Assembly (NCBI GenBank): GCA_002328025.1
Contig: DCVE01000013.1
Location: 42,579-106,578 of the forward strand
DNA: 64,000 nt
Direction: 5' to 3'
DNA from: Patescibacteria group bacterium UBA2196
GTDB lineage: Bacteria > Patescibacteriota > Patescibacteriia > UBA2196
Shown here: one piece after another, positions 5,617 through 62,772 of the stretch
How positions within the stretch are numbered: position 1 is the stretch's first letter
Layout of the letters: the number at the start of each line of letters is the position of its first letter
The notes under the pieces: model-generated
What the model was told of the DNA's origin: nothing
Database searches by the model: none
What the model saw: the letters and a program-made list of their open reading frames with translations, nothing else
Translations under genes and position numbers: made by a program

Positions 5617-5990
5617 AAGGGGTGGGTGAGCAATCGCCCTAATATCCGCTAATTGGTGGATTGTTGGGGAGGAAAGTCCGGACGCCACACAAAGGATAGT
5701 TCTGAAACAGAACCGAGCATAAGAAATACAAGAAAAATAAGTTACGATCGTTTTATTTTTCTTGGTCAATTTTAAAACTCCGAGCAAGCGCCACAGAAAA
5801 TAAACCGCCTTGTTAGTTAAAAGACTCACGAGGTAAGGATGAAACCGCGGTGTAAGAGACCACGCGCTTCTATGGTGACATAGATTTGGGTAAGCCTTAT
5901 CCGGCGCAAGTCCCTTTAAAAGGACGCGTTAGATAGATGATTGCATTCCGTTTAGACGGAAACAGAATCCGGCTTATGATCCCACCCTTT
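5617..5990 (+). ncRNA. rnpB: RNase P RNA (bacterial type A)
   Basis: conserved P4 strands GGAGGAAAGTCCGGAC and AACAGAATCCGGCTTA; terminal P1 pairing AAGGGGTGGG/CCCACCCTT; GC-rich in an AT-rich background; no ORF. Confidence 0.85.
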
Positions 5991-8628: not shown

Positions 8629-10713
8629 TTAATACTTAAAAATCCAGGCTTTGCCGGCCATAATTTCCCAGCTTTCCTTGGCAGTGTTTTTGCCATCAAT
8701 TACAAGTTTTTTGTAGTTAGTCCAATAATCATTAAAGATTAAATATATGTTTTGAACACCGGTAAGCTGTTTAGCAGAGCTAATAAATTTTGGTTGAATA
8801 CCTTGATAAGTAATGTCAAGATAAATTTGATAAAGCGGGGAAGATGTTGGTAGGGGATAATAAAAGAGATTGTTATAATATTTTTTGAAACCAAATTCTT
8901 GTAAAGCAGCAGCCGCAGTTGATTGATTGGCTAGAACCACATAATTATCAGTGATATTTTTTTGTTCAACAAGTTGAACGGCCTGTAGATCGGCTGTGGA
9001 TACGCCGTAGCCTTTGTTTTTTTCTAGACGGTCATAACGCGGATAAGAAAAATAAAAAATTGAGACAGCAATAAAAGATAGTGTAAAAATTAATAAGCTA
9101 ATTTTTTTTGAATCATATTTTTTATCCAGTTTAAAAACAGTGGCTAGATATAATAAAAATGGTAAAGCAAAAAAATAGGCAGCATGTACAAAGCGCATGG
9201 GGAAAATATTTTGTTCGTAACTAATTACAGCACTAAAGTTTAGGCATTTTAATAATAAGGCGTTAAATAATAAAATAAAAATAAGCCAAGGAAAAATAAA
9301 TATTTTTTTATCAGTTATTACGGAATGGGTTTTATAAAATTTCCAAAAACCAAGGCTGCTGCCCAGAATTACTAATAAAATAAAATATTTTTTTAATAAA
9401 TATGGTGCATGTAAAAAAGAGTAAAAAGATAAATAATTGTCTTGCGCCAGCCATGTTTTTAATAATTCTTGGGGCCCATTAAAGTTAAAAGTTAAGTTAA
9501 AATTGGGTAACAAAAAAGTGGCGCTCAAAAAAATTATTGGCAGGATAAAAAGAAATATAAGCACAGAAAAATTAAAGACAAGCTTTTGCTGTGGGCGTGT
9601 TTTAAGCCAACACAACCAACAGCACATTAAAGCCGGCAGGCCTGCTAATGGGTGTATGGCTGTAATGCTAAGGCCCAAAAACCACAATTGGTTAATTTTG
9701 AGGGTTGCGGAATTCAGATTTATGAAAACTAGCCAGACAAAAACAATTAAAAAAAGATTGGCTAAGTGTTGAGGTGTGGTAACAAAAAACGAAAATAAAG
9801 TTAGAAGGGCAGCAAACAAGGCCAAAATTTGGGCCATTTTTTTTTCGGCCATTAATTTTAAAAAAGCAAAATAAGTAACCAACGGTATTAACAATGCACC
9901 CAAAATCGGTGCTAAAAATTTGTCAATAATAGTCAAATTTATGTATGAAATTTTGGCGATAAAAACCGTTAAACCATATTGGCCAATGTAATAGGGTGTT
10001 TGGGGTAAAACAAAACCTTGCGTAAAAATTATTTTTTCGGCAACGCGATGAATAAAAGGGTCAAAGCCGTAGCCAATTTGGTAGATTATAACTGCGACGG
10101 AGGCACTTAAAAAAATTTGTAAGACCACCAGGATGATATTTTTGGAAGAGGGGAATTTAATAATTTCAAATAGCACAAGAAAAGTGGCCAAAAAATAGAG
10201 CAAAAAGAACGGTGTTGGTAAAACTGTCCACGGTGAAACAAGCGCTTCAGAACTACTGTTTATGATTAAAAAGTAAAAGAGTGCAATAAAGAGACCTGAA
10301 TAAATTAGGTTAAGAAAAAAAATAATTTTTTTACTATCTTTTTTATTATTTTCTTCACTACTAATGGATGCAAACGGTTGAGTTGGTGTGGTTTGATTAG
10401 CCGGCAAAAAAATAGTCGTCACCAGCGGCATTAATAACACCAAAAAAATTGAAAAATTAGTTAGCCCCAGAGTATAATAAAGAATTACACTGGACAAGAT
10501 TATCTCAGCTATTAAAAAGATAAAACCTAAAAAAAATCGAAAATATTTTTTTTGACTAAAAAAAATTCGTTGACCAAAATAAAAGCTAAAAAAATAAAAA
10601 TAAATTAAAGTCAGAAGTCCGCCCACAAACGGATTTTTGAATGCCAGCATATTTAACACCAAGACTAAAATTATGAGCAGAGGTTGGATTAAAAATTTGA
10701 TTTTTTGTGACAT
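8629..10713 (-). CDS. large polytopic membrane protein (putative GT-C-like glycosyltransferase/hypothetical)
   Basis: 694 aa, many TM helices, C-terminal soluble domain. Confidence 0.55.
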   Translation of the reverse strand: MSQKIKFLIQPLLIILVLVLNMLAFKNPFVGGLLTLIYFYFFSFYFGQRIFFSQKKYFRFFLGFIFLIAEIILSSVILYYTLGLTNFSIFLVLLMPLVTTIFLPANQTTPTQPFASISSEENNKKDSKKIIFFLNLIYSGLFIALFYFLIINSSSEALVSPWTVLPTPFFLLYFLATFLVLFEIIKFPSSKNIILVVLQIFLSASVAVIIYQIGYGFDPFIHRVAEKIIFTQGFVLPQTPYYIGQYGLTVFIAKISYINLTIIDKFLAPILGALLIPLVTYFAFLKLMAEKKMAQILALFAALLTLFSFFVTTPQHLANLFLIVFVWLVFINLNSATLKINQLWFLGLSITAIHPLAGLPALMCCWLCWLKTRPQQKLVFNFSVLIFLFILPIIFLSATFLLPNFNLTFNFNGPQELLKTWLAQDNYLSFYSFLHAPYLLKKYFILLVILGSSLGFWKFYKTHSVITDKKIFIFPWLIFILLFNALLLKCLNFSAVISYEQNIFPMRFVHAAYFFALPFLLYLATVFKLDKKYDSKKISLLIFTLSFIAVSIFYFSYPRYDRLEKNKGYGVSTADLQAVQLVEQKNITDNYVVLANQSTAAAALQEFGFKKYYNNLFYYPLPTSSPLYQIYLDITYQGIQPKFISSAKQLTGVQNIYLIFNDYWTNYKKLVIDGKNTAKESWEIMAGKAWIFKY

Positions 10714-13733: not shown

Positions 13734-15089
13734 TTATTGTATTTGGCTAACAAAAAGACCTTCGGCGGAATTAAACCAATAAAGATTATTACCCTTACTG
13801 TTAATAAGCAGGCGATCGGCTTTTTTGAATTTAGAGAAACTGGTAGTTTCACGGCGATAGTTAATCATCACTAGTTCATTGATGACCAACTCCTCAGTGG
13901 TGAGATACATGATGTGTGTGGGTATTGGATACCAAAGTACGTCTTTAATTTTTGAACCTAATCGTGTAATGAGTTGTTTAGGATTGTCTTTTTTAGCAGT
14001 TTCCCAAATCCAAATTTCATAAGCATTGCCAAAGAGGAAAGAATCTTGCTCTTGACTCCAAGTAATAAAATTGACGTCCGGAATAATCACCTTTTTGGTG
14101 TTGATTTTTTTTTGTTGTGGATCAAAAACGTAGAGCAGTTGATTTTTTTGATCAATTAAATTTATAATACCTGTTGGTGCGGGATAAATTTGATAATTGT
14201 CAGACCACGGTAATGAGCTGACCGGGATTTCTTTGGTTGGATTTGAAGGTGAAAATAATTTTAACTCTATTGCGTTGTCTCTTTCTTTTAGATAGTAGAT
14301 ATCGCCAGTAGAAATAATTTCAAAATCAATAATGTTGTTATTGGAGATTGTTTTGAGGACGACTTGATTGGGAATGATAATTTTATCAATACCAAAACGA
14401 GACAAACCAAGTAGGGTTAGGGGGTTTTGTGGGTCAAAAACAATTTTTTTGTAATTTTCTGGTGCCCAAGCACTAATATTTAAGGTTTGTTGGTTAGAAA
14501 AATCTACCCAATACCAGACGTTGGATACGTTTTTTATTAGCGCTTGATTACCAGATTCGTTAAGGGTAATAGTATTAATTTCTGTACTGTTTATTTTTAC
14601 ACTTTTTAAAGATCCATCTTCAGCATTAAATAGGAAAAGTTCTTTTTTGTTGCCATTTTCATAGGTGGTGGAAAAAGCTAAATGATTTTTTTGTGAGTTA
14701 GAAAAAATTTTAATTTCGGCTTTTAATAAAATTTCTGTAGCTGGATTAGTTTTGAAAAGACGAATATACTGTGCAAAGGCTGTTTCACCAGGGAAAATAC
14801 GCAGATCTTTGGTCCACGGCAGGTAATCCTGTTTTTTGACCTCAACGTGGTATTCGCCGGGGGTCAGGTTTTTTAGACGAGCGGTGGTTTTTTCAGTTAG
14901 CAGCGTTCCATTGAGATAAATATCCGCAGTGTCAGGCTTTGATTCTAAAAATAAAACCCCGGTTTTTTGCCAGGTTTTTTGTTGCCAATTAAATTTATAA
15001 CCTTGAGCCCAAATCAACACTAGGGGCGCAGTGATAAAAAAGACCAAAAAAAATATAATATAAATAATGCGACGGTGGAAAAGAGTCAT
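13734..15089 (-). CDS. hypothetical membrane-anchored protein with PEGA-like domain
   Basis: N-terminal TM helix; PEGA-like LTPGEYHVEV; beta-rich remainder. Confidence 0.5.
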   Translation of the reverse strand: MTLFHRRIIYIIFFLVFFITAPLVLIWAQGYKFNWQQKTWQKTGVLFLESKPDTADIYLNGTLLTEKTTARLKNLTPGEYHVEVKKQDYLPWTKDLRIFPGETAFAQYIRLFKTNPATEILLKAEIKIFSNSQKNHLAFSTTYENGNKKELFLFNAEDGSLKSVKINSTEINTITLNESGNQALIKNVSNVWYWVDFSNQQTLNISAWAPENYKKIVFDPQNPLTLLGLSRFGIDKIIIPNQVVLKTISNNNIIDFEIISTGDIYYLKERDNAIELKLFSPSNPTKEIPVSSLPWSDNYQIYPAPTGIINLIDQKNQLLYVFDPQQKKINTKKVIIPDVNFITWSQEQDSFLFGNAYEIWIWETAKKDNPKQLITRLGSKIKDVLWYPIPTHIMYLTTEELVINELVMINYRRETTSFSKFKKADRLLINSKGNNLYWFNSAEGLFVSQIQ

Positions 15090-15233
15090 GGTGACTTATA
15101 GATTATTTAGATATTAATTTTAATGTTAACAAAAAACCGTTTAAAAATCAATTTTTTGTTTTTTTAAATTGTGCTATAATAAAAAAGTGCTAAGTTTAAT
15201 AAGCATTTTATTTTTTTATATTATTTATATTAT

Positions 15234-16523
15234 ATGGATTATCCGCAACTACACGATGAGGTTAAACAGTCCAATTCAAAAAAAAGGTGGTTGTTTCGTT
15301 TTATAATTGTTATTTTGGTAGGCGTTATAATTTTTATGGCTTTTGGTTTTGGTCGAACGATTGGTAAACGCACCATTACGACACAGGTGCCTGAAACTTC
15401 AGCCAATACCCAGTTTGGCCAAGTGTTGGACAAAGGACAAATACCAGATTATCTAAAAAAAGATGTCAATTTTGATATTTTTTGGCAGGTGTGGAGTAAA
15501 ATTCAAAATGAATACATTGAGCGACCAGTGCCAGAAACAAAACTTTTCTATGGTGCCATGGTGGGTTTGGTGGCGGCACTGGGAGATCCGTACTCTATGT
15601 TTTTAGAGCCGCAAACTTCAAAGGAATTTCAAGCAGAGTTGCAAGGACACTTCGAAGGTATTGGCGCTGAAATTGCTGTAAAAAGTAATCAACTGACAGT
15701 TGTTTCGCCATTGCCAGAATCGCCAGCTGAAAAAGCTGGACTTAAGGCCGGTGATAAGATCGTTTTAATTGACGATTTAACCACGACTGGTCTTGACGCC
15801 AGTCAGGCAGTGCAAAAAATTCGTGGTCCCAAAGGAACTCAGGTGGTTTTGACCATTGCGCGTGGAGATACTTTGGAACAGAAAAAAATTACCATTATTC
15901 GTGATACAATTAAGATTGTTTCTGCATCGTGGAAAATGGAAGAAAAAAATAGTAAAAAAATTGCTGTCATTAAATTATCAAATTTTAATGAAGACACCGA
16001 TAGTCGTCTAATTACGGCAATTAATGAAATTTTAACCAAAAACCCGCAGGGTATTGTATTAGATTTACGTGGCAACCCCGGTGGTTATATAGATCAAGCC
16101 ATTAGCGTTGGTTCGCATTGGGTGAGTGCTGGAAAAACCATTGTGCTGGAAAAGTTTTTTGATAATAAACAAACACAGCATTTGGCCAATGGACGGGCTG
16201 AATTGAAAAATTATAAAACCGTAGTTTTAATTAACAAAGGTTCAGCTTCAGCTTCGGAAATTGTGGCAGGTGCTCTAAAGGACAATCAACTGGCTACCAT
16301 TGTGGGCGAACAAAGTTTTGGTAAGGGTTCAGTCCAAAATTTGGAAGATTTACCAGATGGTTCGGCGATTAAATTAACTGTTGCGCGATGGCTAACGCCC
16401 AACGGTACAACAATTGATAAACAGGGTATTACGCCTGATGTGGTGGTTGAATTAACTGAACAAGATTTTAATGACAATAAAGATCCGCAGTTGGAAAAGG
16501 CGTTGGATTTATTAACACAATAA
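15234..16523 (+). CDS. ctp: carboxyl-terminal processing protease (S41 family, Ctp)
   Basis: PDZ domain plus S41 signature GSASASEIVAGAL; N-terminal TM anchor. Confidence 0.85.
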   Translation: MDYPQLHDEVKQSNSKKRWLFRFIIVILVGVIIFMAFGFGRTIGKRTITTQVPETSANTQFGQVLDKGQIPDYLKKDVNFDIFWQVWSKIQNEYIERPVPETKLFYGAMVGLVAALGDPYSMFLEPQTSKEFQAELQGHFEGIGAEIAVKSNQLTVVSPLPESPAEKAGLKAGDKIVLIDDLTTTGLDASQAVQKIRGPKGTQVVLTIARGDTLEQKKITIIRDTIKIVSASWKMEEKNSKKIAVIKLSNFNEDTDSRLITAINEILTKNPQGIVLDLRGNPGGYIDQAISVGSHWVSAGKTIVLEKFFDNKQTQHLANGRAELKNYKTVVLINKGSASASEIVAGALKDNQLATIVGEQSFGKGSVQNLEDLPDGSAIKLTVARWLTPNGTTIDKQGITPDVVVELTEQDFNDNKDPQLEKALDLLTQ

Positions 16524-19186: not shown

Positions 19187-19600
19187 ATGTATAGTTCAAT
19201 AGTTTTAGAGCATTTTAAAAATCCACATAATCAAGGCGTCATTCTTGATGCTGATGCTGTGGGTCAAGTTGGTAATCCAGTGTGCGGTGATATTATGAAG
19301 TTGTATTTAAAATTTAGCGAAGCTGATAAAGATAAGTCCCTTGAAGAAAGGGTGATTGAAGATATAAAGTTTGAAACACTTGGTTGCGGCGCGGCTATTG
19401 CCTCCACTTCCATGCTGACAGATTTGGCCAAAGGCAAAACTGTGGCCGAGGCTTTAAAAATTACTAAACAAAACGTGGCAGATGCTTTGGGCGGTTTGCC
19501 GGCCGTTAAGATTCATTGTTCAATTTTAGCTACAGAGGCTTTAGAAAAAGCAGTAAAAAATTATTCCGCCAGCCTTGAGCGACCGAGCCCCGCAGTATAG
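19187..19600 (+). CDS. iscU: Fe-S cluster assembly scaffold, NifU/IscU N-domain type
   Basis: PVCGDIMKLY...LGCGAAIAS...IHCSILA conserved Cys ligands; last ~10 codons run into a GC-rich repeat element. Confidence 0.8.
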   Translation: MYSSIVLEHFKNPHNQGVILDADAVGQVGNPVCGDIMKLYLKFSEADKDKSLEERVIEDIKFETLGCGAAIASTSMLTDLAKGKTVAEALKITKQNVADALGGLPAVKIHCSILATEALEKAVKNYSASLERPSPAV

Positions 19601-19710
19601 TGGGACGAGGGAGCCGAAAGGTCTTAAATTTAAATTTATAAATCAATCCCTTAAATGAGCCATGGGATCCCTCGGCTCATAGCGACCAAAAAGGCCGCTC
19701 GGGATAAATT
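19580..19710 (+). repeat. GC-rich repeat element region (includes GATCCCTCG...CTCGGGAT copy at 19666-19705)
   Basis: local GC spike; shares terminal motifs with the in-frame insertion in iscS. Confidence 0.4.
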
Positions 19711-19723
19711 ACAAAAAAACATT

Positions 19724-20161
19724 ATGAAAAATCCTATCATACGCACAATTTATTTGTATCTTTTTGCCCTGGTTGGTTTAGCCATGTTAGTCATTGGGCT
19801 TTCTATGATTATTAATTTGGGTTTAAAGACCTGGATTTTTACCCAAGCTGATAGAGTGGATAATTATATGAGCCAGCCAATGCCTCTTTATTTAAACAAA
19901 GAAATGGCTACGGTTGAAAATTTGCAAGCTTGTCAAGATAAATGTTCATTAACAAACGAACAAAAAACTCAAATTGCTAATTGGTTAGCTGATTATGAAA
20001 ATTGGAAAAATACAGAAAAGAATCGTGATCCTAATTTTTATCAAAAACAAAATCGCCAAAGACAAGCCGCTACAGCTATTTCTTTAATTTTGGTTGGTTT
20101 GCCACTTTGGTTATTTCATTGGAGCGTTATAAAAAAAGATAATAAAGAAAAAGAGGTTTAA
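19724..20161 (+). CDS. hypothetical membrane protein (2 TM)
   Basis: ORF track, start moved to internal MKNPII after the repeat element. Confidence 0.5.
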   Translation: MKNPIIRTIYLYLFALVGLAMLVIGLSMIINLGLKTWIFTQADRVDNYMSQPMPLYLNKEMATVENLQACQDKCSLTNEQKTQIANWLADYENWKNTEKNRDPNFYQKQNRQRQAATAISLILVGLPLWLFHWSVIKKDNKEKEV

Positions 20162-20182
20162 TATAATTAAAAATTTAAAAAT

Positions 20183-20413
20183 ATGAATATACAAGAAAAA
20201 ATACAACAAGAGTTAGATTTAATTCGTCCGCATTTACAAATGGATGGGGGAGATGTGGAGCTGGCGGAATTTGACGAAGCTACGGGTGTGTTGAAATTGC
20301 GTTTGCAAGGGCATTGCGCAGGTTGTCCCATGAGTCAAACAACTTTGCAAGAAGGCATTGGCCGGGCCGTGAAAGAGAAAGTTTCGGAAGTTAAAGAAAT
20401 TGTGGCGGTGTAA
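20183..20413 (+). CDS. Nfu/NifU C-terminal-domain Fe-S cluster carrier
   Basis: CAGCPMSQTTL CxxC motif; 76 aa. Confidence 0.7.
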   Translation: MNIQEKIQQELDLIRPHLQMDGGDVELAEFDEATGVLKLRLQGHCAGCPMSQTTLQEGIGRAVKEKVSEVKEIVAV

Positions 20414-20422
20414 AATAATTTT

Positions 20423-21649
20423 ATGCAAAATATATATTTTGATAATGCAGCCACGACGCCAGTAAATAAAAATGTTTTGGAAGTCATGTTGCCATATTTT
20501 TGTGAAATTTATGGCAACGCTTCATCCTTACACTCATTTGGTCAGGAAGCTTTAAAAGCTGTAGATGAAGCGCGCGCTAAAGTGGCAAATTTTTTAGGCT
20601 GTGAGACCAATGAAATAATTTTTACTTCGGGCGCCACAGAAGCGGATAATTTAGCCATTATGGGCGTGGTTTTTGCTAATAATTATTTAGAAAAAAAAAT
20701 ACACATTATCACCACCGAGTTTGAACATCCAGCAGTTTTGGAAACTTGTAAGTATTTGGAAAAACAGGGTGTAGAGGTGAGTTATGTAAAACCAGGTAGT
20801 GATGGGGTTATAAAAGTGGAAGATATTGAAAAAGAAATCAAAGATAATACAATTTTAATTTCGGTGATGTATGTTAATAATGAAATTGGCACCATTCAGC
20901 CAATTAAAGAAATAGGACAATTGGTGAAAAAAATAAATTCAGAGCGTATTACACGAGATCCCTCGACTTCGTCTTCGCTTCGCTCAGACTCTGCTCGGGA
21001 TGACACACTGCGTCAAATTTATTTTCACACCGATGCGGTGCAAGCAGCTTTGTATTGTGAGATGAATGTCGAAAATTTGGGTGTGGATTTGATGGCAATT
21101 TCTGGTCATAAAATTTATGGACCAAAAGGCATTGGTGTTTTGTATATAAAAAAAGGCACGCGCTTGCAAAAAATTCAACACGGTGGTCATCATGAATTTA
21201 ATAAACGCGCTGGTACTTTAAACACGCCTTTAATGGTTGGAATGGGAAAAGCTGTTGAGTTAATTCAAACTAGAGATTTAAATAAAATTAAATTTTTGCG
21301 GGATTATTTGTGGCAAGAGTTGCAAAAAAACATTGTTGATGTTAGTTTAAATGGTTCTTGGGAAGATAGAACGCCCACTAATCTAAATGTTTCTGTGCAA
21401 GGTGTGGAAGGCGAAGCTTTGTTGTTGGGTTTGGATATGGCGGGAATTGCGATTTCCACTGGCTCGGCCTGTTCTTCTGGTTCTCTTGAACCGTCACATG
21501 TATTAATGTCCATTGGTTTGTCGCACGAGGCGGCGCACGGCAGTTTAAGAATAACTTTGGGTGAAGAAAATACAAAAGAAGAGATTGATTATTTTGTGCA
21601 ACAACTTAAGCAGTTGGCGGAAAAGTTTAGACAGATGGCGCCCAAATAA
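20423..21649 (+). CDS. iscS: cysteine desulfurase (IscS/NifS class V aminotransferase)
   Basis: SGHKIYGPKGIG PLP-lysine region; SSGSLEPSHVL active-site Cys loop; ~15-codon GC-rich in-frame insertion. Confidence 0.9.
   Translation: MQNIYFDNAATTPVNKNVLEVMLPYFCEIYGNASSLHSFGQEALKAVDEARAKVANFLGCETNEIIFTSGATEADNLAIMGVVFANNYLEKKIHIITTEFEHPAVLETCKYLEKQGVEVSYVKPGSDGVIKVEDIEKEIKDNTILISVMYVNNEIGTIQPIKEIGQLVKKINSERITRDPSTSSSLRSDSARDDTLRQIYFHTDAVQAALYCEMNVENLGVDLMAISGHKIYGPKGIGVLYIKKGTRLQKIQHGGHHEFNKRAGTLNTPLMVGMGKAVELIQTRDLNKIKFLRDYLWQELQKNIVDVSLNGSWEDRTPTNLNVSVQGVEGEALLLGLDMAGIAISTGSACSSGSLEPSHVLMSIGLSHEAAHGSLRITLGEENTKEEIDYFVQQLKQLAEKFRQMAPK
20957..21001 (+). repeat. in-frame GC-rich insertion element in iscS (GATCCCTCG...CTTCGCTTCGCTCAG...CTCGGGAT)
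   Basis: inserted relative to the conserved IscS core between EIG..KKI and RQIYFHTDA; GC-rich; terminal imperfect inverted repeat. Confidence 0.5.
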
Positions 21650-25191: not shown

Positions 25192-26193
25192 ATGTTTAGA
25201 CAATCATTGCTTAAAAAAATTAAAAAAAGTGGTTTAATCGGTCGTGGCTGCAATAATTTTTTGGTGGCTGAAAAATGGGAAATGGTAAAGCGTGTAAAAG
25301 GCGCGGAAAAGTTCGTGGTGTGTAATATTTCCGAATCAGAGCCGGGTATATTTAAAGATAAATATATTTTGGAAAAATGGCCACAATTGGTGTTGGATGG
25401 TATTAATTTAGCCATGCATGAAATTAAAGCTAAAAAAGGTTTTGTCTATCTAAATCCACTGTATTATGGTGAATTTCAAGCCAGTCTGGAACAAATAATT
25501 TTAAAAAATAATTATAGTATCGAATTATTTGAGAAGCCCTTGCACGACTATGTGGGTGGAGAAGAAACAGCGGTTTTAAACTCTATGCAAGGTTTGAGAG
25601 TTGAGCCGCGCTTAAAACCACCCTATCCAACCAAAGTTGGTTTTTATGGTGCGCCGACACTAATTCACAACTGTGAAACTTTTTATGCCGTGTCTCTAAC
25701 AAATTCTGGTGTTTATAAAAATACTCGTTTTTATTGTTTGTCTGGTGTTGATAGAGCAAATGATGTAAAAGAATTAGCAACTGATTTAACGGTTCGTGCG
25801 GTTTTACAAGAATTTGATCATACACCAAGCGTTGATTTTTTTTATCAAGTTGGCGGAGGAGCGGCTGGTTTTTGTTATAATTACAAGCAATTGAATCGTA
25901 AATTTGAAGGCTCTCCAGCCATTATTATTTATAAAAACAATGATTCTGAACAGGCAATTGTGATGAAATGGTTGGATTTTTTTCGTAAAGAATCTTGTGG
26001 TCAGTGTGTGCCATGTCGGGAGGGAACTTTTCGTTTGCGTAATTTGATGTATACATATTATCAAGGTGGAAAACTTGATAAAAAAGCTTTTGATGATTTA
26101 ATTTTGTCATTACAAAAAACTAGCTTATGTGCTTTGGGAAGAACTGCTACAAATGCCGTGGTTTCGTATTTTAAAAACGTAAAAGGAATATGA
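25192..26193 (+). CDS. NuoF-like flavoprotein subunit (hydrogenase diaphorase-type, short)
   Basis: GGEETAVLNSMQG (NuoF GEETALL motif); CGQCVPCREG N3 4Fe-4S motif; FMN motif degenerate (GRGCNNF); translationally coupled to hydA. Confidence 0.75.
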   Translation: MFRQSLLKKIKKSGLIGRGCNNFLVAEKWEMVKRVKGAEKFVVCNISESEPGIFKDKYILEKWPQLVLDGINLAMHEIKAKKGFVYLNPLYYGEFQASLEQIILKNNYSIELFEKPLHDYVGGEETAVLNSMQGLRVEPRLKPPYPTKVGFYGAPTLIHNCETFYAVSLTNSGVYKNTRFYCLSGVDRANDVKELATDLTVRAVLQEFDHTPSVDFFYQVGGGAAGFCYNYKQLNRKFEGSPAIIIYKNNDSEQAIVMKWLDFFRKESCGQCVPCREGTFRLRNLMYTYYQGGKLDKKAFDDLILSLQKTSLCALGRTATNAVVSYFKNVKGI

Positions 26194-28139
26194 AAAAAAT
26201 AAAATTTTATATTAATAATAAAGAATATACTGCTTTGGAAAATGATTCTGTTTTGGACGTGGCTTTACGAGAAGGACTAAATGTTCCGCATTTGTGTAAA
26301 CATCCGGATTTGGCCATTAAAGGTAATTGTCGTTTGTGTTTGGTACAAGTGGAAAATAAAGGTGTGGTGACAGCCTGTTCGACTGTGGTGGAAAAAGGGA
26401 TGCAAATTTTTTTAGAAACCGAAGAAGTTAAAAGCTTACGCAAGACAAATTTGGAGCTTATTTTTTCTGAACATCAGGAAAAGTGTGCCACTTGTTTGTA
26501 CCAAGATAATTGTCAAATATTAAAATATGCAGCTGAATTTGGTATAAAAATTTCGCGTTTTGAAGACAGAAAAAAACATTATTCAACCTGGCAGTTTGGT
26601 GATTCCATACGGTTTGATAGTTCTAAATGTATTGATTGTCGAAATTGTGTGGAAGTTTGCGATAAACAAGCCTGTAGTTTTTATGAAATTGCAGAAAGAG
26701 GAGTTGAAACAATCATTAAACCCAAAGGAGAAGTTGGTGGAATTACCTCCCCCCACCCCCTCCTTCTAAAGGAGGGGAGCTTAGATCTGTTAAAAAATGA
26801 TGTAGATAAATTTGATTGTACTTATTGTGGGCAATGTGTGACACATTGTCCGGTGGGAGCAATTAGCGGGGTATCGCATTGGGAGGAAGTTGAAAAATTA
26901 TTAAAAGATCGAGCTGGAAAAATTTTGGTTGTTGAAATTGCTCCGTCTATTCGTGTCTCTATTGGTGAAGAGTTTAATGAACCATACGGTAAGATTGTGA
27001 CTGGGCAATTAGCGGCTTCTATGAAAGCTTTGGGGTTTGATTATGCTTTTGATGTCAATTTGGGTGCCGATTTTACCACTTATGAGGAAGCACAAGAAGT
27101 GGTGGAAATGGTTTTGAATAATAAATCGCGTCCATTATTTACTTCGTGTTGTCCGGCGTGGGTAAAATTTGTTGAATTTTATTATCCGGAATTTATTGCC
27201 CATTTGACTAGTGCTAATTCACCGCACATGTGTTCTGGACCAATTATTAAAACCTATTTTGCCGATTATTTAAAAAAAGATCCACGCGATATTGTGGTGG
27301 TTTCAATTATGCCGTGTACCTCAAAAAAACATGAAATTAATTTAGAGACGCACACCATTGATTTGGGTTGGTGTTTGGAAAGATTGGATTTACCTAACAT
27401 TAAAAATATTTGTCCGGATAGAAAACAACTACAGGGCGTAAAAATAAAAGCCGTGGATTATGTTTTAACCACGCGTGAATACGCCCATCTTTTGCATAAA
27501 CACAAGATTGATTTATCAAAACTTAAAGCAGAAAAATTAGACAAACCTTTGGGCGTCTATTCTGGTGCCGGAGCAATTTATGGCGCGACCGGTGGAGTTA
27601 TGGAATCAGCTCTTAGAAGCGCGGATTATTTTTTCCGAGTCTGGGATGAAACCGATTCATTAAAATCAGTGGTCAAAGGAGAAAATTATAAATTGAAAAA
27701 GAAAAGATTTTCTAAATTATTACAAAGTCGCATTGAGTTTAAAGAAGTGCGTGGTCAAAATGGAATTAAAGAAGCCAGGGTAAAGGTGGGGGGGCGTAAG
27801 TTAAATGTTGCGGTCGTTAATGGTTTGGGTAATGCTAAAAAAATTTTGGATGACCTTAAAGCCGGTAAGGTAAAATATGATTATGTGGAGGTTATGGCCT
27901 GCCCGGGTGGTTGTATTGGTGGTGGTGGTCAGCCCATTCCGACTAATTCAAAAATTAGAGCCCAACGCGCCAACGCAGTTTATGAAATTGATAAAAACTT
28001 AGCCATTCGTACAGCTCACGAAAATCCAAGTCTTTTGGAGGTGTATAATAAATATTTTAAGGGTGATAAAGAAATAATTGAAAAAGTTTTACACAGTAAA
28101 TTTAAGGTTAAACAAAAAACAGGATATACGATAGTATAA
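26190..28139 (+). CDS. hydA: [FeFe] hydrogenase catalytic subunit with N-terminal 2Fe-2S and 4Fe-4S ferredoxin domains
   Basis: H-cluster motifs TSCCPAW (L1), MPCTSKKHE (L2), EVMACPGGCIGGGGQP (L3); CIDCRNCVEVC and CTYCGQCVTHCP ferredoxin motifs. Confidence 0.85.
   Translation: MKKIKFYINNKEYTALENDSVLDVALREGLNVPHLCKHPDLAIKGNCRLCLVQVENKGVVTACSTVVEKGMQIFLETEEVKSLRKTNLELIFSEHQEKCATCLYQDNCQILKYAAEFGIKISRFEDRKKHYSTWQFGDSIRFDSSKCIDCRNCVEVCDKQACSFYEIAERGVETIIKPKGEVGGITSPHPLLLKEGSLDLLKNDVDKFDCTYCGQCVTHCPVGAISGVSHWEEVEKLLKDRAGKILVVEIAPSIRVSIGEEFNEPYGKIVTGQLAASMKALGFDYAFDVNLGADFTTYEEAQEVVEMVLNNKSRPLFTSCCPAWVKFVEFYYPEFIAHLTSANSPHMCSGPIIKTYFADYLKKDPRDIVVVSIMPCTSKKHEINLETHTIDLGWCLERLDLPNIKNICPDRKQLQGVKIKAVDYVLTTREYAHLLHKHKIDLSKLKAEKLDKPLGVYSGAGAIYGATGGVMESALRSADYFFRVWDETDSLKSVVKGENYKLKKKRFSKLLQSRIEFKEVRGQNGIKEARVKVGGRKLNVAVVNGLGNAKKILDDLKAGKVKYDYVEVMACPGGCIGGGGQPIPTNSKIRAQRANAVYEIDKNLAIRTAHENPSLLEVYNKYFKGDKEIIEKVLHSKFKVKQKTGYTIV
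26757..26777 (+). repeat. perfect 9-bp palindrome CCCCTCCTT-CTA-AAGGAGGGG inside hydA (in-frame)
   Basis: seen directly; same element as at 41611-41631 in alaS. Confidence 0.6.
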
Positions 28140-30764: not shown

Positions 30765-32384
30765 ATGTCGCATAAAAATTTAAAACAATTCAAACAAAGT
30801 CCGCTAGTGATGGTAATTTTAGATGGCTGGGGAATTAATAAGGCCTATAACGGGAATGCCATTACTGGGGCTAGTGTACCAGTATTTGATACACTCTGGA
30901 AAAATTATCCACACACGGAGTTGTGTGCCTCTGGCAGGTGTGTGGGCTTGCCAGCCATGCAGGATGGTAATTCAGAAGCTGGTCATTTTAATTTGGGTGC
31001 GGGTCGAATTGTTGATCAAGATACTCTGATGGTTTCTAAGGCTATTAGCAGTGGACTTTTTTTTAAAAATCCAGCCCTTAAAGCCAGTCTTAAACATTTA
31101 AAAAGAACTGGTGGTAGTTTGCATTTAATGGGATTGCTATCAGGTTGGCAATCGGCGCACGCGGATCCAGATCATCTTTTGGCATTGCTGACATTTTATC
31201 GCCAAGAAGGTGTAAAGGAAATTTTTTTACATCTTTTTACTGACGGTCGTGATTCTTATCGTTTTGGTGCGTTAGATTTTTTAAAAAAGATAAGAAAAGA
31301 AATGCGTGGTGGTGAAAAAATTGCTACAATTTGTGGTCGTTATTATGCCATGGATAGAAAAAAACAATGGGATCGTATAGAAAAGACATATCAGGCCATA
31401 GTTGCAGGTAAAGCTGTATATTATTCCAAAACAGCTGAAGAAGCCATTAAGCAGGCTTATGATCGTGGTGAGAGTGATGAATTTATTGTGCCAACCGTGA
31501 TGGTTACTGGTGGTAAATGTGATAGTAAGGGTGTGTGTACGGGTGGTAAACCAATTACGGAAATTAAAAACGGTGATGCTGTAGTTTTTTTTAACCTAAG
31601 ATCTGATCGCGCCAGAGAGCTAACTAAGACTTTTGTACAAGCGGATTTTAATAAGATGAATGTGGGGTCTTTTGTACGTACTCGGATTTTGAAAGATTTA
31701 TTGTTTGTTTCCATGACTGATTTTGGACCTGATTTAGACAGTATCTTAACTGCTTTTCCGTCGCAAAATTTAAAAAATACATTACCCATGGTTTTGGCTG
31801 ATATGCGACAACTGTATATTGCGGAAAATGAAAAATACGCCCATGTAACATATTTTTTTAATGGTGGTTATGCTGATCCACTGAATGGTGAAGATAGAAT
31901 AATGATTCCGTCGTTAGATGTATCATCATATGATTTACAACCAGAAATGTCAGCTTTGAAGATCACTGAAAAAGTTGTGAGTGATTTGAAAAATAATAAA
32001 TATGATTTTATTTTAGTTAATTTTGCCAATCCAGATATGGTGGGGCACACTGGTAATTTGGCTGCCGGTATTAAGGCTTGTGAAACAGTGGATACTTGTG
32101 TGGGTAAGATTTTAAAAATTTTGACAGAAAAAGAAGGTATTTTATTAGTGACGGCAGATCATGGTAATGTGGAAGAAATGATTGATGAAAAAACAGGCAA
32201 GATAGACACCCAGCATTCTTCTTTCCCTGTACCGTTTATTATTGCTGACAAAAGAATAAAAAATATAAAAAATTATAAGTTAAAAAATAAAGGTATTTTG
32301 GCCAATGTGGCGCCGACAATTTTAGATTTATTGGGTAAAACGAAACCCAGAGAGATGACAGAAACCTCACTTATAGTTCATTAA
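30765..32384 (+). CDS. gpmI: 2,3-bisphosphoglycerate-independent phosphoglycerate mutase (copy 1)
   Basis: MVILDGWG...GNSEAGH (catalytic Ser); ADHGN C-terminal metal site. Confidence 0.85.
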   Translation: MSHKNLKQFKQSPLVMVILDGWGINKAYNGNAITGASVPVFDTLWKNYPHTELCASGRCVGLPAMQDGNSEAGHFNLGAGRIVDQDTLMVSKAISSGLFFKNPALKASLKHLKRTGGSLHLMGLLSGWQSAHADPDHLLALLTFYRQEGVKEIFLHLFTDGRDSYRFGALDFLKKIRKEMRGGEKIATICGRYYAMDRKKQWDRIEKTYQAIVAGKAVYYSKTAEEAIKQAYDRGESDEFIVPTVMVTGGKCDSKGVCTGGKPITEIKNGDAVVFFNLRSDRARELTKTFVQADFNKMNVGSFVRTRILKDLLFVSMTDFGPDLDSILTAFPSQNLKNTLPMVLADMRQLYIAENEKYAHVTYFFNGGYADPLNGEDRIMIPSLDVSSYDLQPEMSALKITEKVVSDLKNNKYDFILVNFANPDMVGHTGNLAAGIKACETVDTCVGKILKILTEKEGILLVTADHGNVEEMIDEKTGKIDTQHSSFPVPFIIADKRIKNIKNYKLKNKGILANVAPTILDLLGKTKPREMTETSLIVH

Positions 32385-32395
32385 TTTTAATTTTT

Positions 32396-33994
32396 ATGCA
32401 TGTAGATAATAATTTAAAAGATACAAGACCCAAACCGGTGATGCTTGTAATTTTGGATGGTTGGGGTGTGGCGCCAGCTTTAATTAGTAATGCTATTACG
32501 CAGGCTAAAACACCCAATTTTAATAAATACGTGCAACAGTATTTTAGTACGACCTTGCAAGCTTCAGGTGAAGCGGTGGGTTTGCCGTTTGGTGAAATGG
32601 GTAATTCCGAGGTCGGTCATTTAAATATTGGTGCTGGCAAAATTGTATTTCAAGAATTACCACGCATAAATAAAGCTATTTTGGAAGGCAAATTTTTTGA
32701 AAATTCAATTTTAATTAAAGCTTGTTTAGCCGCTAAAAAAAATAAAAGTACTTTGCATATAGTTGGTTTAATCTCAACTGGTGGGGTGCATGCTTCAGTA
32801 GATCATCTTTATGCGTTGTTGGAGCTTGCTAAAAAACAACAGCTAAAAAATGTTTTTGTACATGCTATTTTGGATGGACGTGATATGGGTTATAATTCTG
32901 GTTTAGATTTATTGCGTCAGGTGAAAAAAAAAATGCAGGAGATTGGCGTAGGTAAAATTGCCACAGTGTGCGGTCGTTTTTGGGCCATGGATCGTGATAA
33001 CCATTGGGAACGTATAAGTGAAGCCTACCAGGCCATGGTTTATGGAATGGCAGAATTTAAGGGCGAGGATATCTTTGAAATTATACAAACAGCATATGAA
33101 GGTGGGGTTTATGATGAAGAATTAAAACCAATAGTGTGTTTGGACACAATTGCTCAACCTTTGGCCACAATTAAAGATAAAGATGCGGTGATATTTTTTA
33201 ATTTTCGTGCTGATCGTGCTAGAGAATTGACGCGTGCTTTTGTGTTGCCGGGTTTTGAAAAATTTAGGCGTGTGGAGTATCTAGCCAATTTATATTTTGT
33301 GACCATGACACAATATGAAAAACAATTACCTGTGGATGTGGCTTTTCCACCCGAGCATATTACTATGCCGCTGGCAAAAGTTTTAAGTGGACAGGGTTTG
33401 AAACAGTTACACATAGCCGAGACTGAAAAATACGCGCACGTAACATGTTTTTTTAACGGCGGCTTAGAAGAGACGTTGCCGGGTGAATATAGAATTTTAG
33501 TTCCATCACCGCGAGTGGAAAGTTATGCTGAAAAACCAGAAATGTCCGCTGGCGAAATAAAAAACAATTTAATTAAGGAAATCGCTAACAATAAGTTTGA
33601 TTTTATAGTTGTTAATTTTGCCAATCCGGATATGGTCAGTCATACAGGTGATCAAAAAGCTACTGTCAAAGCTTTGGAAAAAGTTGATAAATGTGTGGGT
33701 GAAATTGTGGAGGCGGTTTTAGCTTATGGCGGCGTGACTTTAATAACCGCAGACCATGGTAACGCCGAGTGTTTGGTGAATGATAAAACTGGTGAAATTA
33801 ATAAAGAACACTCTACCGCCCCAGTGCCTTTTTTAATTGTTGGGCAGGCCTTCAAAAGTCAATATATTGGTGAAGAAACAGTGGATTTGACATTACTAAC
33901 ACCTTCAGGGGTGTTGGCCGATATCGCGCCGACCATTTTAAAAATTATGCAAATTGAACAACCTAAAGAAATGACCGGTAGAAGTTTAATTTAG
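32396..33994 (+). CDS. gpmI: 2,3-bisphosphoglycerate-independent phosphoglycerate mutase (copy 2, tandem paralog)
   Basis: LVILDGWG...GNSEVGH; ADHGN; clearly homologous to copy 1 but divergent. Confidence 0.85.
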   Translation: MHVDNNLKDTRPKPVMLVILDGWGVAPALISNAITQAKTPNFNKYVQQYFSTTLQASGEAVGLPFGEMGNSEVGHLNIGAGKIVFQELPRINKAILEGKFFENSILIKACLAAKKNKSTLHIVGLISTGGVHASVDHLYALLELAKKQQLKNVFVHAILDGRDMGYNSGLDLLRQVKKKMQEIGVGKIATVCGRFWAMDRDNHWERISEAYQAMVYGMAEFKGEDIFEIIQTAYEGGVYDEELKPIVCLDTIAQPLATIKDKDAVIFFNFRADRARELTRAFVLPGFEKFRRVEYLANLYFVTMTQYEKQLPVDVAFPPEHITMPLAKVLSGQGLKQLHIAETEKYAHVTCFFNGGLEETLPGEYRILVPSPRVESYAEKPEMSAGEIKNNLIKEIANNKFDFIVVNFANPDMVSHTGDQKATVKALEKVDKCVGEIVEAVLAYGGVTLITADHGNAECLVNDKTGEINKEHSTAPVPFLIVGQAFKSQYIGEETVDLTLLTPSGVLADIAPTILKIMQIEQPKEMTGRSLI

Positions 33995-40765: not shown

Positions 40766-42751
40766 ATGACTTCCAAAGAATTGCGTCAAAGATATATTGA
40801 GTTTTTTAAAAAAAATGGGCATGTAGAAATTCCCAGTGCTTCTTTGATTCCGGAAAATGACCCTTCTATTCTTTTTACCACTGCTGGTATGAGTCCACTC
40901 GTGCCATTTCTTTTAGGTGAAAAACATCCGGCTGGCAATAAATTAGTTAATTCGCAAAAATGTATTAGAACAGGTGACATTGATGGTGTTGGTGATGCTT
41001 GCCACCATACTTTTTTTGAAATGTTGGGTCATTGGAGTTTGAATGATTATTTTAAAACTGAAGCCATTGAATTGACTTATAAATTTATTACTGAAGATTT
41101 AAAAATAGATCAAAAATATCTGGCCGTTTCTGTTTTTGTTGGAGATAATGATGCGCCGTTTGATGCCGAAAGTTATCAAAAATGGCAAGAGCTGGGTTTT
41201 TCTGAAAAAAGAATTACTAAATTACCCAAAAAAGATAATTGGTGGGAATTGCCTGGAAATTCTGGGCCGTGTGGGCCAGATACAGAAATGTTTTATTGGA
41301 CTGGGGACAAAAATTCTGTGCCAGAAGTTTTTGATCCGCAAAATAAAAATTGGGTAGAAATTGGCAATGATGTTTTGATGCAATATGAAAAAATTGGCGA
41401 AAACAAATATCAACCTGCCAAACAAAAAAATATTGATAATGGCACAGGTTTGGAAAGACTTTTAGCAGTTATGAACGGTCTTGATGATAATTATCAAACA
41501 GATTTATTTTTACCAATAATTGAGGAAATTGAAAAGTTAAGCGGGAAAAAATATACCCCTCTGTCCGCAGTAGCGGACTCCTCCCCTTATCAAGGGGAGG
41601 ATAAGAACATCCCCTCCTTTCTAAGGAGGGGCCTCACGACGGAGTCGGAGGGGGAGATAAAATCAATGCGTATTATCGCCGACCATTTGCGCGCGGCCAC
41701 TTTTATCATGGCTGATCCGGCTGGTATTGCGCCTTCAAACACAGATCAAGGCTATGTGGTTAGAAAGTTAATTCGTCGAGCTATTCGTCATGGTAAATTA
41801 ATTGGCATTGATCAGAATTTTTGTGTTGAAATTGCTGAAGTAGTAATTAATAATATGCAGGATATTTATGCAGAACTAGAAACTAATAAAAAATTTGTTT
41901 TAGATAATATAAATTTAGAAGAAGAAAAATTTAGAAAAACATTGCAAGACGGAGAAAAGAAATTAAATAAAATTTTTGATAAGGTTGAAATATTTGAAGA
42001 AATGGAGGAAGGTGACAAACTAGAAACTTATAATTTTGCTGATTACAGTGGTTTAGGTAAAGACTTTTTTGTCTTATCTTCCGAATATGGTTATCCTTTG
42101 GAATTAAGTTTAGAAGCTTTGGATGAAAAAAAAGAGAGATTAGGTGATGGTAAAATACCAAAAGAGGAAAAAGAAAAAATACAACGGAAATTTGATGATT
42201 TTAAAGAAAAAGTGATTAAAAGTTATAATATTGAAATGCAAAAACATCAAGATCTTTCGCGCACTGCCAGCGCTGGCAAATTTAAAGGTGGCTTAGCCAA
42301 TCAAAGCGAAATGGCTGTTAAATACCATACTGTTTCGCATTTATTATTGCAAGCTTTAAGAATGGTCTTGGGCGAACATGTTTTTCAAAAAGGTTCTAAC
42401 ATTACCGACGAAAGATTGCGTTCAGATTTTTCTCATGGGGGAAAAATGACACCAGAACAAATTGTCCAAGTTGAAAACATAGTTAATGAACAAATACAAA
42501 AAAATTTAACAGTCGAATGTAATGAAATGAGTTTAGATGAAGCTAAAAATCAAGGCGCCATGGGAGTTTTTGCCAATAAATATGGTGAGCGAGTTAAGGT
42601 ATACACAGTTGGCGATGACCATTTTTGTTTTTCTAAAGAAATTTGTGGCGGACCACATGTAAAGAATACTGGCGAATTAGGCCATTTAAAAATAATAAAA
42701 GAGGAGGCCAGTTCAGCGGGCGTCAGAAGAATTAAAGCAATTTTAGAATAA
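40766..42751 (+). CDS. alaS: alanine--tRNA ligase (short form: catalytic plus editing domains, no C-Ala domain)
   Basis: class II motifs (FTTAGM, HHTFFEMLGHWS); editing-domain HxxxH / CGGPHV; only 661 aa; ~100-nt GC-rich palindromic insertion. Confidence 0.85.
   Translation: MTSKELRQRYIEFFKKNGHVEIPSASLIPENDPSILFTTAGMSPLVPFLLGEKHPAGNKLVNSQKCIRTGDIDGVGDACHHTFFEMLGHWSLNDYFKTEAIELTYKFITEDLKIDQKYLAVSVFVGDNDAPFDAESYQKWQELGFSEKRITKLPKKDNWWELPGNSGPCGPDTEMFYWTGDKNSVPEVFDPQNKNWVEIGNDVLMQYEKIGENKYQPAKQKNIDNGTGLERLLAVMNGLDDNYQTDLFLPIIEEIEKLSGKKYTPLSAVADSSPYQGEDKNIPSFLRRGLTTESEGEIKSMRIIADHLRAATFIMADPAGIAPSNTDQGYVVRKLIRRAIRHGKLIGIDQNFCVEIAEVVINNMQDIYAELETNKKFVLDNINLEEEKFRKTLQDGEKKLNKIFDKVEIFEEMEEGDKLETYNFADYSGLGKDFFVLSSEYGYPLELSLEALDEKKERLGDGKIPKEEKEKIQRKFDDFKEKVIKSYNIEMQKHQDLSRTASAGKFKGGLANQSEMAVKYHTVSHLLLQALRMVLGEHVFQKGSNITDERLRSDFSHGGKMTPEQIVQVENIVNEQIQKNLTVECNEMSLDEAKNQGAMGVFANKYGERVKVYTVGDDHFCFSKEICGGPHVKNTGELGHLKIIKEEASSAGVRRIKAILE
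41560..41660 (+). repeat. GC-rich palindromic insertion in alaS (hairpins at 41564-41577, 41580-41600, 41611-41631)
   Basis: CCTCCCCTT-ATC-AAGGGGAGG and CCCCTCCTT-TCT-AAGGAGGGG perfect 9-bp stems; in-frame (…SAVADSSPYQGEDKNIPSFLRRGLTTESEGEIKS…). Confidence 0.55.
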
Positions 42752-62569: not shown

Positions 62570-62772
62570 TTTTTGTAAAAAATATTTTAATAAATAGAAA
62601 AAAAGGGGGGGATTTAAAAATATAATTTTACTTAATGGCGGAGACTATGGGAAGTTTGGTGGCGGTATAATTTGCGTCCAAGCACTCACCGCCAACAAAT
62701 TTGGGTGAATGACTGAGCGAAGCGAAGGAGTGAACTTCATGGTTTCTGTTAGCTGATGTTGGGCTGTTTTTT

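Follow-up and report, generated by a model that had tools for sequence, protein, structure and literature searches.

A GC-rich in-frame insert in a patescibacterial cysteine desulfurase gene: a probable copy of the CGTC/TGTC-tagged hairpin repeats

The 64,000-nucleotide (nt) stretch of Patescibacteria group bacterium UBA2196 analyzed here (assembly GCA_002328025.1, contig DCVE01000013.1, positions 42,579 to 106,578 of the forward strand; hereafter 'the window') contains an iscS gene whose open reading frame is interrupted, without being closed, by a block of GC-rich DNA. By its gene content and homologues the window falls within the Patescibacteria. The block is 58% G+C, as against 35% for the window as a whole, and it raises the question of why an essential Fe-S enzyme of an ultra-small bacterium should carry a puzzling Ser/Arg-rich insert. 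Our analysis suggests that the block is most probably a copy of a hairpin repeat of the CGTC/TGTC-tagged REP / NTS / SRM kind, tolerated in frame as a functionless loop; the insert would then be selfish or domesticated DNA and no new protein feature. The case is a clear but fairly ordinary one of selfish DNA tolerated within an essential gene. The features concerned are:

20423 to 21649, + strand: host gene, a NifS/IscS-type cysteine desulfurase (class-V aminotransferase) of 408 amino acids (Pfam Aminotran_5, E = 7e-83).
20953 to 21005, + strand: in-frame hairpin-repeat unit in iscS, consisting of ACGA, GATCCCTCG...CTCGGGAT (20957-21001) and a GACA tag.
20971 to 20989, + strand: degenerate inner hairpin, GTCT-TCGCTTCGCTC-AGAC, read directly from the sequence.

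The pattern GATCCCTCG-N(15-45)-CTCGGGAT has exactly two matches in the window, at 19666-19705 (+) and 20957-21001 (+), and none in 100 dinucleotide-preserving shuffles (0.00 expected by chance). These exact matches bear out the first-pass annotation of this DNA, made from the sequence alone, which had noticed GC-rich blocks with the same termini at both places. Its length of 45 nt holds for the stretch from the first terminus to the end of the second; the conserved unit is longer, comprising ACGA, the 45 nt and GACA, and the flanks ACGR and GAC(A) are also kept in copies of relatives and other phyla. On the reverse strand the unit reads TGTC-AT-CCCGAG...CTCGAGGG-AT-C-TCGT, with an outer stem of 5 base pairs (bp) and an interior of 28 nt. 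The inner hairpin contains the 15-mer CTTCGCTTCGCTCAG (20973-20987), which equals the family core TCGCTTCGCTC and is matched exactly at 20973-20987 (+) and, as had also been noticed, in inverted orientation at 62713-62727 (-). This core is common to short-form copies such as GATCCCTCGCTTCGCTCGGGAT and positions 7079-7103 of the relative L207; the canonical short form has nine stem positions, two of them mismatched, and a 3-nt loop, and the stem starts with A-T and T-A in all copies. A generic repeat search of the window failed to pick out the family, its output being dominated by AT-rich low-complexity matches.

The closest relative found (L001-L003) shares 85% DNA identity with the window and is collinear with it over positions 10776-31750 (21 kb). 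At the iscS site L001 shows a clean gap of 60 nt, or 20 codons, where about 15 extra codons had been estimated at first, and its nifU-DUF5671 spacer measures ~20 nt versus ~125 nt in the window. In L004, which is more distantly related, both copies are present at the corresponding sites, with conserved termini and different interiors. The clean gap and the recurrence of the termini elsewhere uphold the original view that a short GC-rich repeat has been inserted in frame in iscS, and in close relatives the extra length is either absent or present together with the motifs; the same length lacking the motifs, which would have pointed away from a repeat, was not encountered. When 55 orthologues are arranged in a tree, at least five sister pairs consist of one member with a filled site (+) and one with an empty site (-) (P0001+/P0003-, P0004+/P0007-, P0015+/P0017-, P0011+/P0029- and P0032+/P0020-), and all empty sites have an identical segment length of 25 residues. 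Among the matches listed in a metagenome scan with protein alignment, the orthologues are at most 53% identical and none has the insert.

The repeat is by no means restricted to this lineage. Scanning one genome per species with the termini alone gave more than 120 loci, which is a lower bound, and the loci listed come from Acidobacteriota, Verrucomicrobiota, Gemmatimonadota, Planctomycetota, Omnitrophota, Chloroflexota, Bacteroidota, Bacillota, Patescibacteria and others. Most of the copies listed are 22-23 nt long, and the longer ones hold a nested hairpin. The bases that follow the termini formed no part of the search pattern, and across the 149 copies listed the first three are G in 92%, A in 91% and C in 89%, with A as the fourth in 61%; the iscS copy of the window also carries GAC and A after the pattern. 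The base before the pattern is A in 64% of the same 149 copies. The opposite strand reads (T/C)GTC-AT-CCCGAGC-GAA-GCGAGGG-AT-C: the tag is unpaired, the first two pairs of the stem are A-T, tandem G-A forms an internal loop, the loop of the hairpin is GAA, and the palindrome is followed by C. Most copies of relatives share the TGTC tag of the iscS copy, and L018 has CGTC. Copies often occur as inverted pairs, 50-200 nt apart, that fold into long hairpins; in other phyla the tags point outward in 15 of the 17 pairs examined and inward in the remaining pairs, L045 and L030. Rfam has no family for the element, either at gathering thresholds (the window and 18 element-bearing loci) or at permissive E-values (19400-21200), and literature searches for the element's sequence strings and for REPs in Patescibacteria found no match. 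The motif and its GAC tag also occur in 85 IMG/VR viral contigs (L215-L294), some of which have three or four copies.

What is conserved among these copies is a paired structure. Anchors that do not require pairing (GAT NNN ... NNN ATGAC) were applied to 11 Patescibacteria loci, and 45 of the 260 anchor-only matches turned out to be fully complementary, compared with 8.9 expected and a maximum of 17 in shuffles. The variable outer-stem triplets in these loci form three covarying classes, CCC/GGG (13), TCC/GGA (13) and CCT/AGG (12). The outer stem of the iscS copies reads ATCCC/GGGAT in the window and L208, ATTCC/GGAAT in L207 and ATCCT/AGGAT in L214, with a T-G wobble in L004. Orthologues have entirely different inner hairpins, and those of L004, L207, L208 and L209 nevertheless pair (z-scores of -1.1 to -3.5), while the iscS copies of the window, L210 and L214 fold no better than shuffles. 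Thus, the structure of the repeat is constrained at the nucleic-acid level; in the window copy the inner hairpin has been lost and the copy is decayed.

These substitutions bear directly on the view that the insert is a lineage-specific protein loop selected at the amino-acid level for a motif DPS...RDD. The residues DPS and RDD do recur, in the same frame, in the inserts of many orthologues, as such selection would predict. However, they are simply the translated DNA termini GAT CCC TCG and CGG GAT GAC, and identical DNA termini are found, in other frames, in intergenic copies. Moreover, the compensatory stem changes alter the peptide, giving DSS...RND in L207, the interior residues are unconserved, the loop is predicted to be disordered, and sister lineages lack it. 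We regard selection on the peptide as very improbable.

The insert encodes residues ~179-198 of the cysteine desulfurase, and the translation around it reads ...ERITRDPSTSSSLRSDSARDDTLRQIYFHTDAVQ and contains RDPSTSSSLRSDSARDDTL. IscS/NifS structures in the PDB match the enzyme with E-values of 1e-95 to 1e-99, in alignments that are split and skip query residues ~174-197. The AlphaFold2 model of the window enzyme has a mean predicted local distance difference test score (pLDDT) of 87, with residues 182-194 below 50, and it places the insert between a helix (161-178) and a strand (200-204) that bears the pyridoxal phosphate (PLP)-binding His and Asp (FHTDAVQ). Residues H102, D204, Q207, K230 and C350 are invariant in the orthologue alignment and retained in the window enzyme. 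The model thus predicts that the insert forms a disordered surface loop, which, judging from the fold type, should lie far from the PLP site. The low pLDDT and the intact 408-residue reading frame are in keeping with the initial description of a Ser/Arg-rich, low-complexity loop in an enzyme that remains open.

An intervening sequence that is removed from the mRNA or the protein in the manner of an intron or intein would also leave the mature enzyme intact, and Patescibacteria are known for insertions in their rRNA genes. However, all six intragenic units compared have a length that is a multiple of three and no stop in the sense frame, while intergenic copies are of any length; this fits translation rather than removal. 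In addition, no intron or intein signature is present, 45-60 nt is far too short for either, and Rfam has no match. Removal of the block is therefore scarcely credible.

The architecture of the unit places it among repeats that are already known. The CGTC-tagged REP superfamily is defined by an unpaired CGTC tag, for which TGTC (often) or CCTC may stand, with a short tail and a stem that nearly always opens with A-T at positions one and two; its members occur mainly as head-to-head dimers, have intragenic units in several species, lack a dedicated transposase, and include Neisseria dRS3 and Rickettsia RPE-4 and RPE-6 (Di Nocera et al. 2013, BMC Genomics 14:522, PMC3733652). The Neisseria Transformation Sequence (NTS), CGTCATTCCCGCGMAVGCGGGAATCYRG, contains dRS3, and together with related Ssn-related motifs (SRM) it flanks ssnA, the gene for a 94-residue, single-domain GIY-YIG nuclease (Chenal et al. 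2025, Nat Commun 16:2388, PMC11893778). SsnA binds NTS/SRM solely as single-stranded DNA; the C directly after the palindrome is the most critical base for its binding, cleavage depends critically on the 3 nt that precede the palindrome, and the loop is dispensable in identity, replaceable and extendable (PMC11893778). The published SRM pattern is HGTCWY N0-2 YYVSBRH N0-5 WNVSBRG N0-2 RNCYNB (PMC11893778).

In our family, the invariant non-palindromic bases (the G before AT... and the GAC after ...AT) are those critical for SsnA, and the variable part is the loop. The iscS copy is an oriented hairpin with GTC upstream and C after it (reverse strand TGTC-ATCCC...GGGAT-C), and the family has in common with SRM/NTS a tag strand of (C/T)GTC, AT, a GC-rich stem, a loop, the second arm, AT and C. 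The use of inverted pairs is likewise shared, as is the presence of the motif on both sides of a gene for a ~100-residue, single-domain GIY-YIG protein (L208, L018 and L074). In contrast, an internal 2+2 mismatch (GA/AG) is conserved in the present variant, nested hairpins are frequent, and the variant escapes the published expression; and whereas the NTS of N. meningitidis is intragenic in 2% of cases, the copy of interest in the window is intragenic and decayed. With the CGTC-tagged REPs the family shares the unpaired CGTC/TGTC tag, the two initial A-T pairs, the short tail, the predominance of tags-outward dimers, documented in-frame intragenic units and the absence of an associated transposase. 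The stems of those REPs have 8-9 uninterrupted bp and loops of 4-5 nt, whereas the present variant has 5 bp, an internal loop, a variable inner stem and interiors of up to ~30 nt, and its phyla extend well beyond the five reported. What is known, then, is the CGTC-tagged REP/NTS/SRM kind; what is new is its occurrence in Patescibacteria, the bulged long-loop variant and the in-frame site in iscS.

The association with small GIY-YIG genes can be seen in the isc operon of L208, the patescibacterial genome from which the iscS orthologue P0010 derives, where a copy at 9017-9055 (-), a GIY-YIG open reading frame of 103 residues at 9068-9379 and a copy at 9390-9431 (+) follow one another. The encoded protein reads MKRSKNYCVYIM...VFYTGIS.... 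A tblastn search with this protein had matches among loci whose retrieval had relied solely on the DNA pattern, in Kiritimatiellae (L018) and Terriglobia (L074); in both, a (-) copy precedes the GIY-YIG gene and a (+) copy follows it, each no more than 150 nt away. A weaker third match, in Gemmatimonadales (L026), lacks copies over that distance. The proteins of the three flanked genes measure 96-103 residues, with Pfam GIY-YIG as their sole match, and the positions of the GIY Tyr, the YIG Tyr and the Glu correspond roughly to Y6, Y17 and E64 of Neisseria meningitidis SsnA.

Classical REP/REPIN elements are instead mobilized by RAYT, an HUH-Y1 transposase, and they resemble the present family in being short GC-rich hairpins arranged as inverted doublets, with a single-copy enzyme gene flanked by repeats; the tags-outward dimers, in particular, are similar to REPINs. 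The two differ in the tag and in the enzyme class, which is an HUH-Y1 transposase there and a GIY-YIG nuclease here. Genes similar to RAYT do occur in relatives, in a syntenic place after mgsA: that of L211 scores 96.5 bits against NCBIfam REP_Tyr_transpos (cut-off 80), and that of L207 scores 64 bits, below this cut-off, and 25.9 bits against Pfam Y1_Tnp (cut-off 23). However, the RAYT of L211 is flanked by a different repeat of the type TGTAACTCC...GGA, namely TGTAACTCCGAACTTTAGTTCGGA and its inverted variants, and nothing comparable was seen beside the L207 gene. The tag of our family is TGTC and not GTAG, the unit flanks GIY-YIG genes instead of RAYT, and no transposase has been tied to CGTC-type REPs (PMC3733652). 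Mobilization by RAYT is accordingly a distinctly improbable account of the iscS insert.

Tandem and inverted copies of TGTAACTCCGAACTTTAGTTCGGA surround the RAYT gene of L211 at 14575-14690 and 15165-15445 and form a second REP family, with none in the window. The RAYT-like open reading frame of L207 (14669-15259) holds in-frame GC-rich hairpins of its own, at ~14950-15020. Several iscS orthologues also carry additional peptides. In P0004 (L210 ~5690-5740), P0005, P0006 and P0008 a second in-frame insert near residue 90, VTPAFRPDSSELKLG..., is encoded by ...TCCGAGCTGAAGCTCGGAGTTATAC..., and since this resembles the RAYT-flanking repeat, iscS appears to have been colonized by two repeat families at two sites. 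Further repeat-like in-frame peptides occur at several sites in P0019, P0032 and P0034 (SARNASHSEAGG, KPARNATHSVAGG, HAELVSASNKILKQVQDD...VILNLFQDQDD), which resemble translated copies of other widespread hairpin repeats.

How a tagged hairpin repeat of this kind might come to reside in iscS can be outlined as follows. Its functional form would be the single-stranded DNA of the strand that reads TGTC-AT-stem...stem-AT-C, to which a single-domain GIY-YIG nuclease (Ssn) of ~100 residues would bind, recognizing the hairpin and the following C and cutting a few bases upstream of the GTC tag; the loop may be long or contain a nested hairpin. One unit lies in the helix-to-strand surface loop of the cysteine desulfurase gene, and three properties would make it tolerable there: a length divisible by three, a sense frame (DPS...RDD) free of stops and a loop distant from the PLP site. 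Its translation would give a disordered loop, rich in Ser, Arg and Asp, that serves no purpose in the enzyme. In this lineage Ssn would presumably act on these copies, which may have spread or been homogenized through a single-stranded DNA mechanism or gene conversion. The iscS copy of the window is probably an old relic of a family that is dwindling in this lineage; the copy density, ~0.8 per 10 kb in the window and L001 versus 3-7 in L207, L208 and L212, and the lack of a GIY-YIG homologue in the window fit such decay.

Several observations weigh against the assignment to this repeat class. The published SRM pattern gives no matches in the window, since the internal GA mismatch of the copies violates position B; in this variant the interior is long and the stem is interrupted by an internal mismatch of 2+2 nt, GA/AG on the tag strand. 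The same pattern does find one or two short-form matches each in L208, L209, L211, L212 and L214, such as TGTCATTCCGGCGAAAGCCGGGATCCAG. The iscS unit of the window folds no better than shuffles on either strand (z-scores of +0.15 as RNA and +0.5 as DNA), and the copy at 19666 has TTT in place of the GTC tag, with the C after the palindrome kept. The link of the flanked proteins to the Ssn family (cd10448) rests on size, single-domain make-up and flanking architecture, and tblastn with the three proteins found no GIY-YIG/ssn homologue in the 64-kb window, in the closest relatives (including the 21 kb of L001) or in the 85 motif-bearing viral contigs. Finally, the spread of the copies is left unexplained because Ssn is a nuclease without demonstrated transposition activity.

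Besides the iscS unit, the window holds three other members of the family:

19666 to 19705, + strand: second copy, intergenic, between nifU and the DUF5671 gene, with the same termini, the ending GATAA and an interior of two small hairpins.
19572 to 19622, - strand: third, degenerate copy, at the 3' end of the nifU open reading frame, GCTCCCTCG with one mismatch.
62711 to 62727, - strand: short-form remnant of 17 nt, TCCTTCGCTTCGCTCAG, with outer stem and tag lost.

The second copy folds better than shuffles (z-scores of -2.4 and -4.1), is present in L004 and absent in L001, and is intergenic because the DUF5671 gene begins at the ATG at 19725, the true start shown by relatives. It belongs to a sub-family that ends in GATAA and not in GATGAC, GATCCCTCGGCTCAYAGCGACC.AAAAGGCCGCTCGGGATAA, which is found at 19666-19707 of the window, 9114-9153 of L004, and 9947-9988 and 14871-14912 of L212; the window copy and a copy at a non-orthologous site of the distant genome L212 are ~90% identical, far more than the flanking DNA. 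The third copy encodes the last ~9 codons of the nifU open reading frame and aligns with the (-) copy at 9017-9055 of L208, which is likewise placed after nifU; of its length, 33 nt (19576-19608) have no equivalent in L001. Together, the third and second copies make a tags-outward dimer, located where L208 has motif-ssn-motif, and one may speculate that the dimer at 19572-19705 is a relic of such a cassette. The 17-nt remnant is identical to the core of the short copy at 7079-7103 of L207, GATCCTTCGCTTCGCTCAGGATGACA, and the 15-mer that it shares with the iscS unit is therefore the family core and no separate repeat. An intergenic hairpin at 62640-62700, TTTGGTGGCGGT...CACCGCCAACAAA, adjoins this remnant and has no Rfam match.

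The position of these copies bears on the idea that the repeat acts in cis as RNA within the isc operon transcript, as a hairpin for stability, processing or protein binding. In the window the two clear copies share the sense strand of a single operon, L004 has retained both, relatives have several copies in and around their isc genes, and CGTC and GTAG REPs have been proposed in the literature to act as RNA. However, the family adjoins many unrelated genes on both strands, and the closest relative L001 is without both copies. The sense strand has U-C/C-U in the internal loop, whereas the other strand has the stabler tandem G-A. Furthermore, no Rfam family matches, and SsnA does not bind RNA (PMC11893778). 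A role in the transcript is improbable on this evidence.

A further question is whether hairpins associated with Ssn are truly mobile, either by precise, site-directed insertion and excision or by targeted copy replacement. The interior of the L208 iscS copy is 91% identical to two other L208 copies and at most 72% identical to iscS copies elsewhere. The pattern at the iscS site points to repeated precise loss, site-directed gain or copy correction. It is from the same codon being filled or cleanly empty in at least five sister pairs, with copies that resemble those of their own genome, that the mobility reading arises; we consider it possible, though on the whole unlikely. If true, the small GIY-YIG nuclease would be part of a cut-and-rejoin mobility system acting on single-stranded DNA, beyond a restriction-like nuclease, and the filled and empty iscS sites would form a series yielding its junction rules. 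The window and L001 provide one clean gap with ambiguous edges, and L210 and L211 are too diverged for junction rules. L001 also has 501 nt (9494-9994) that are extra relative to the window (at 20417); the segment, missing from the window, contains a tRNA-Thr_ED (D-aminoacyl-tRNA deacylase-like) gene, with a short NTS-like hairpin, TGTCATTCCCACGTAAGTGGGAATCCAG, ahead of it.

As an in-frame insert, the iscS unit is most readily compared with the Rickettsia RPE, which are palindromic repeats that lie in frame in conserved essential genes, are translated as extra surface peptides and vary in presence or absence among relatives. The iscS unit has, like these, a length that is a multiple of three, no stop, a surface position and an empty counterpart in the close relative L001. 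RPE-1 differs in being ~100-150 bp long and a family of its own, and the present host is an AT-rich patescibacterium in which one codon position is filled, in many lineages, by genome-specific variants. If the assignment is correct, our analysis extends the NTS/SRM (CGTC-REP) family to Patescibacteria and to a bulged, long-loop variant that escapes the published pattern, ranges from Acidobacteriota to Bacillota and flanks GIY-YIG genes. For annotators there is a warning as well: where proteins of metagenome-assembled genomes contain odd peptides of the type DPS...RDD, these can be translated repeat DNA. The alternating iscS sites with their genome-specific copy sequences are a tractable natural data set on repeat spread and the most valuable lead of the analysis.

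Other GC-rich hairpins of the window lie in frame in genes as well. At 26745-26785, in an Fe-hydrogenase/NuoG-like gene (open reading frame 26190-28139), a different hairpin, CCCCTCCTTCTAAAGGAGGGG, encodes ...ITSPHPLLLKEGSL...; the whole-region alignment with L001 shows no length difference of 12 nt or more there, and L001 probably shares the hairpin. In alaS (open reading frame 40766-42751), a GC-rich block of ~100 nt at 41555-41660 with three hairpins, including CCCCTCCTTTCTAAGGAGGGG, adds ~33 residues (TPLSAVADSSPYQGEDKNIPSFLRRGLTTESEGE) in frame to the alanyl-tRNA synthetase, and this block and the hairpin at 26757 look like one repeat family. Finally, positions 31818-32057 and 33413-33652 are 72-80% identical at a spacing of 1595 nt, which suggests two tandem paralogous phosphoglycerate mutase (iPGM) genes.

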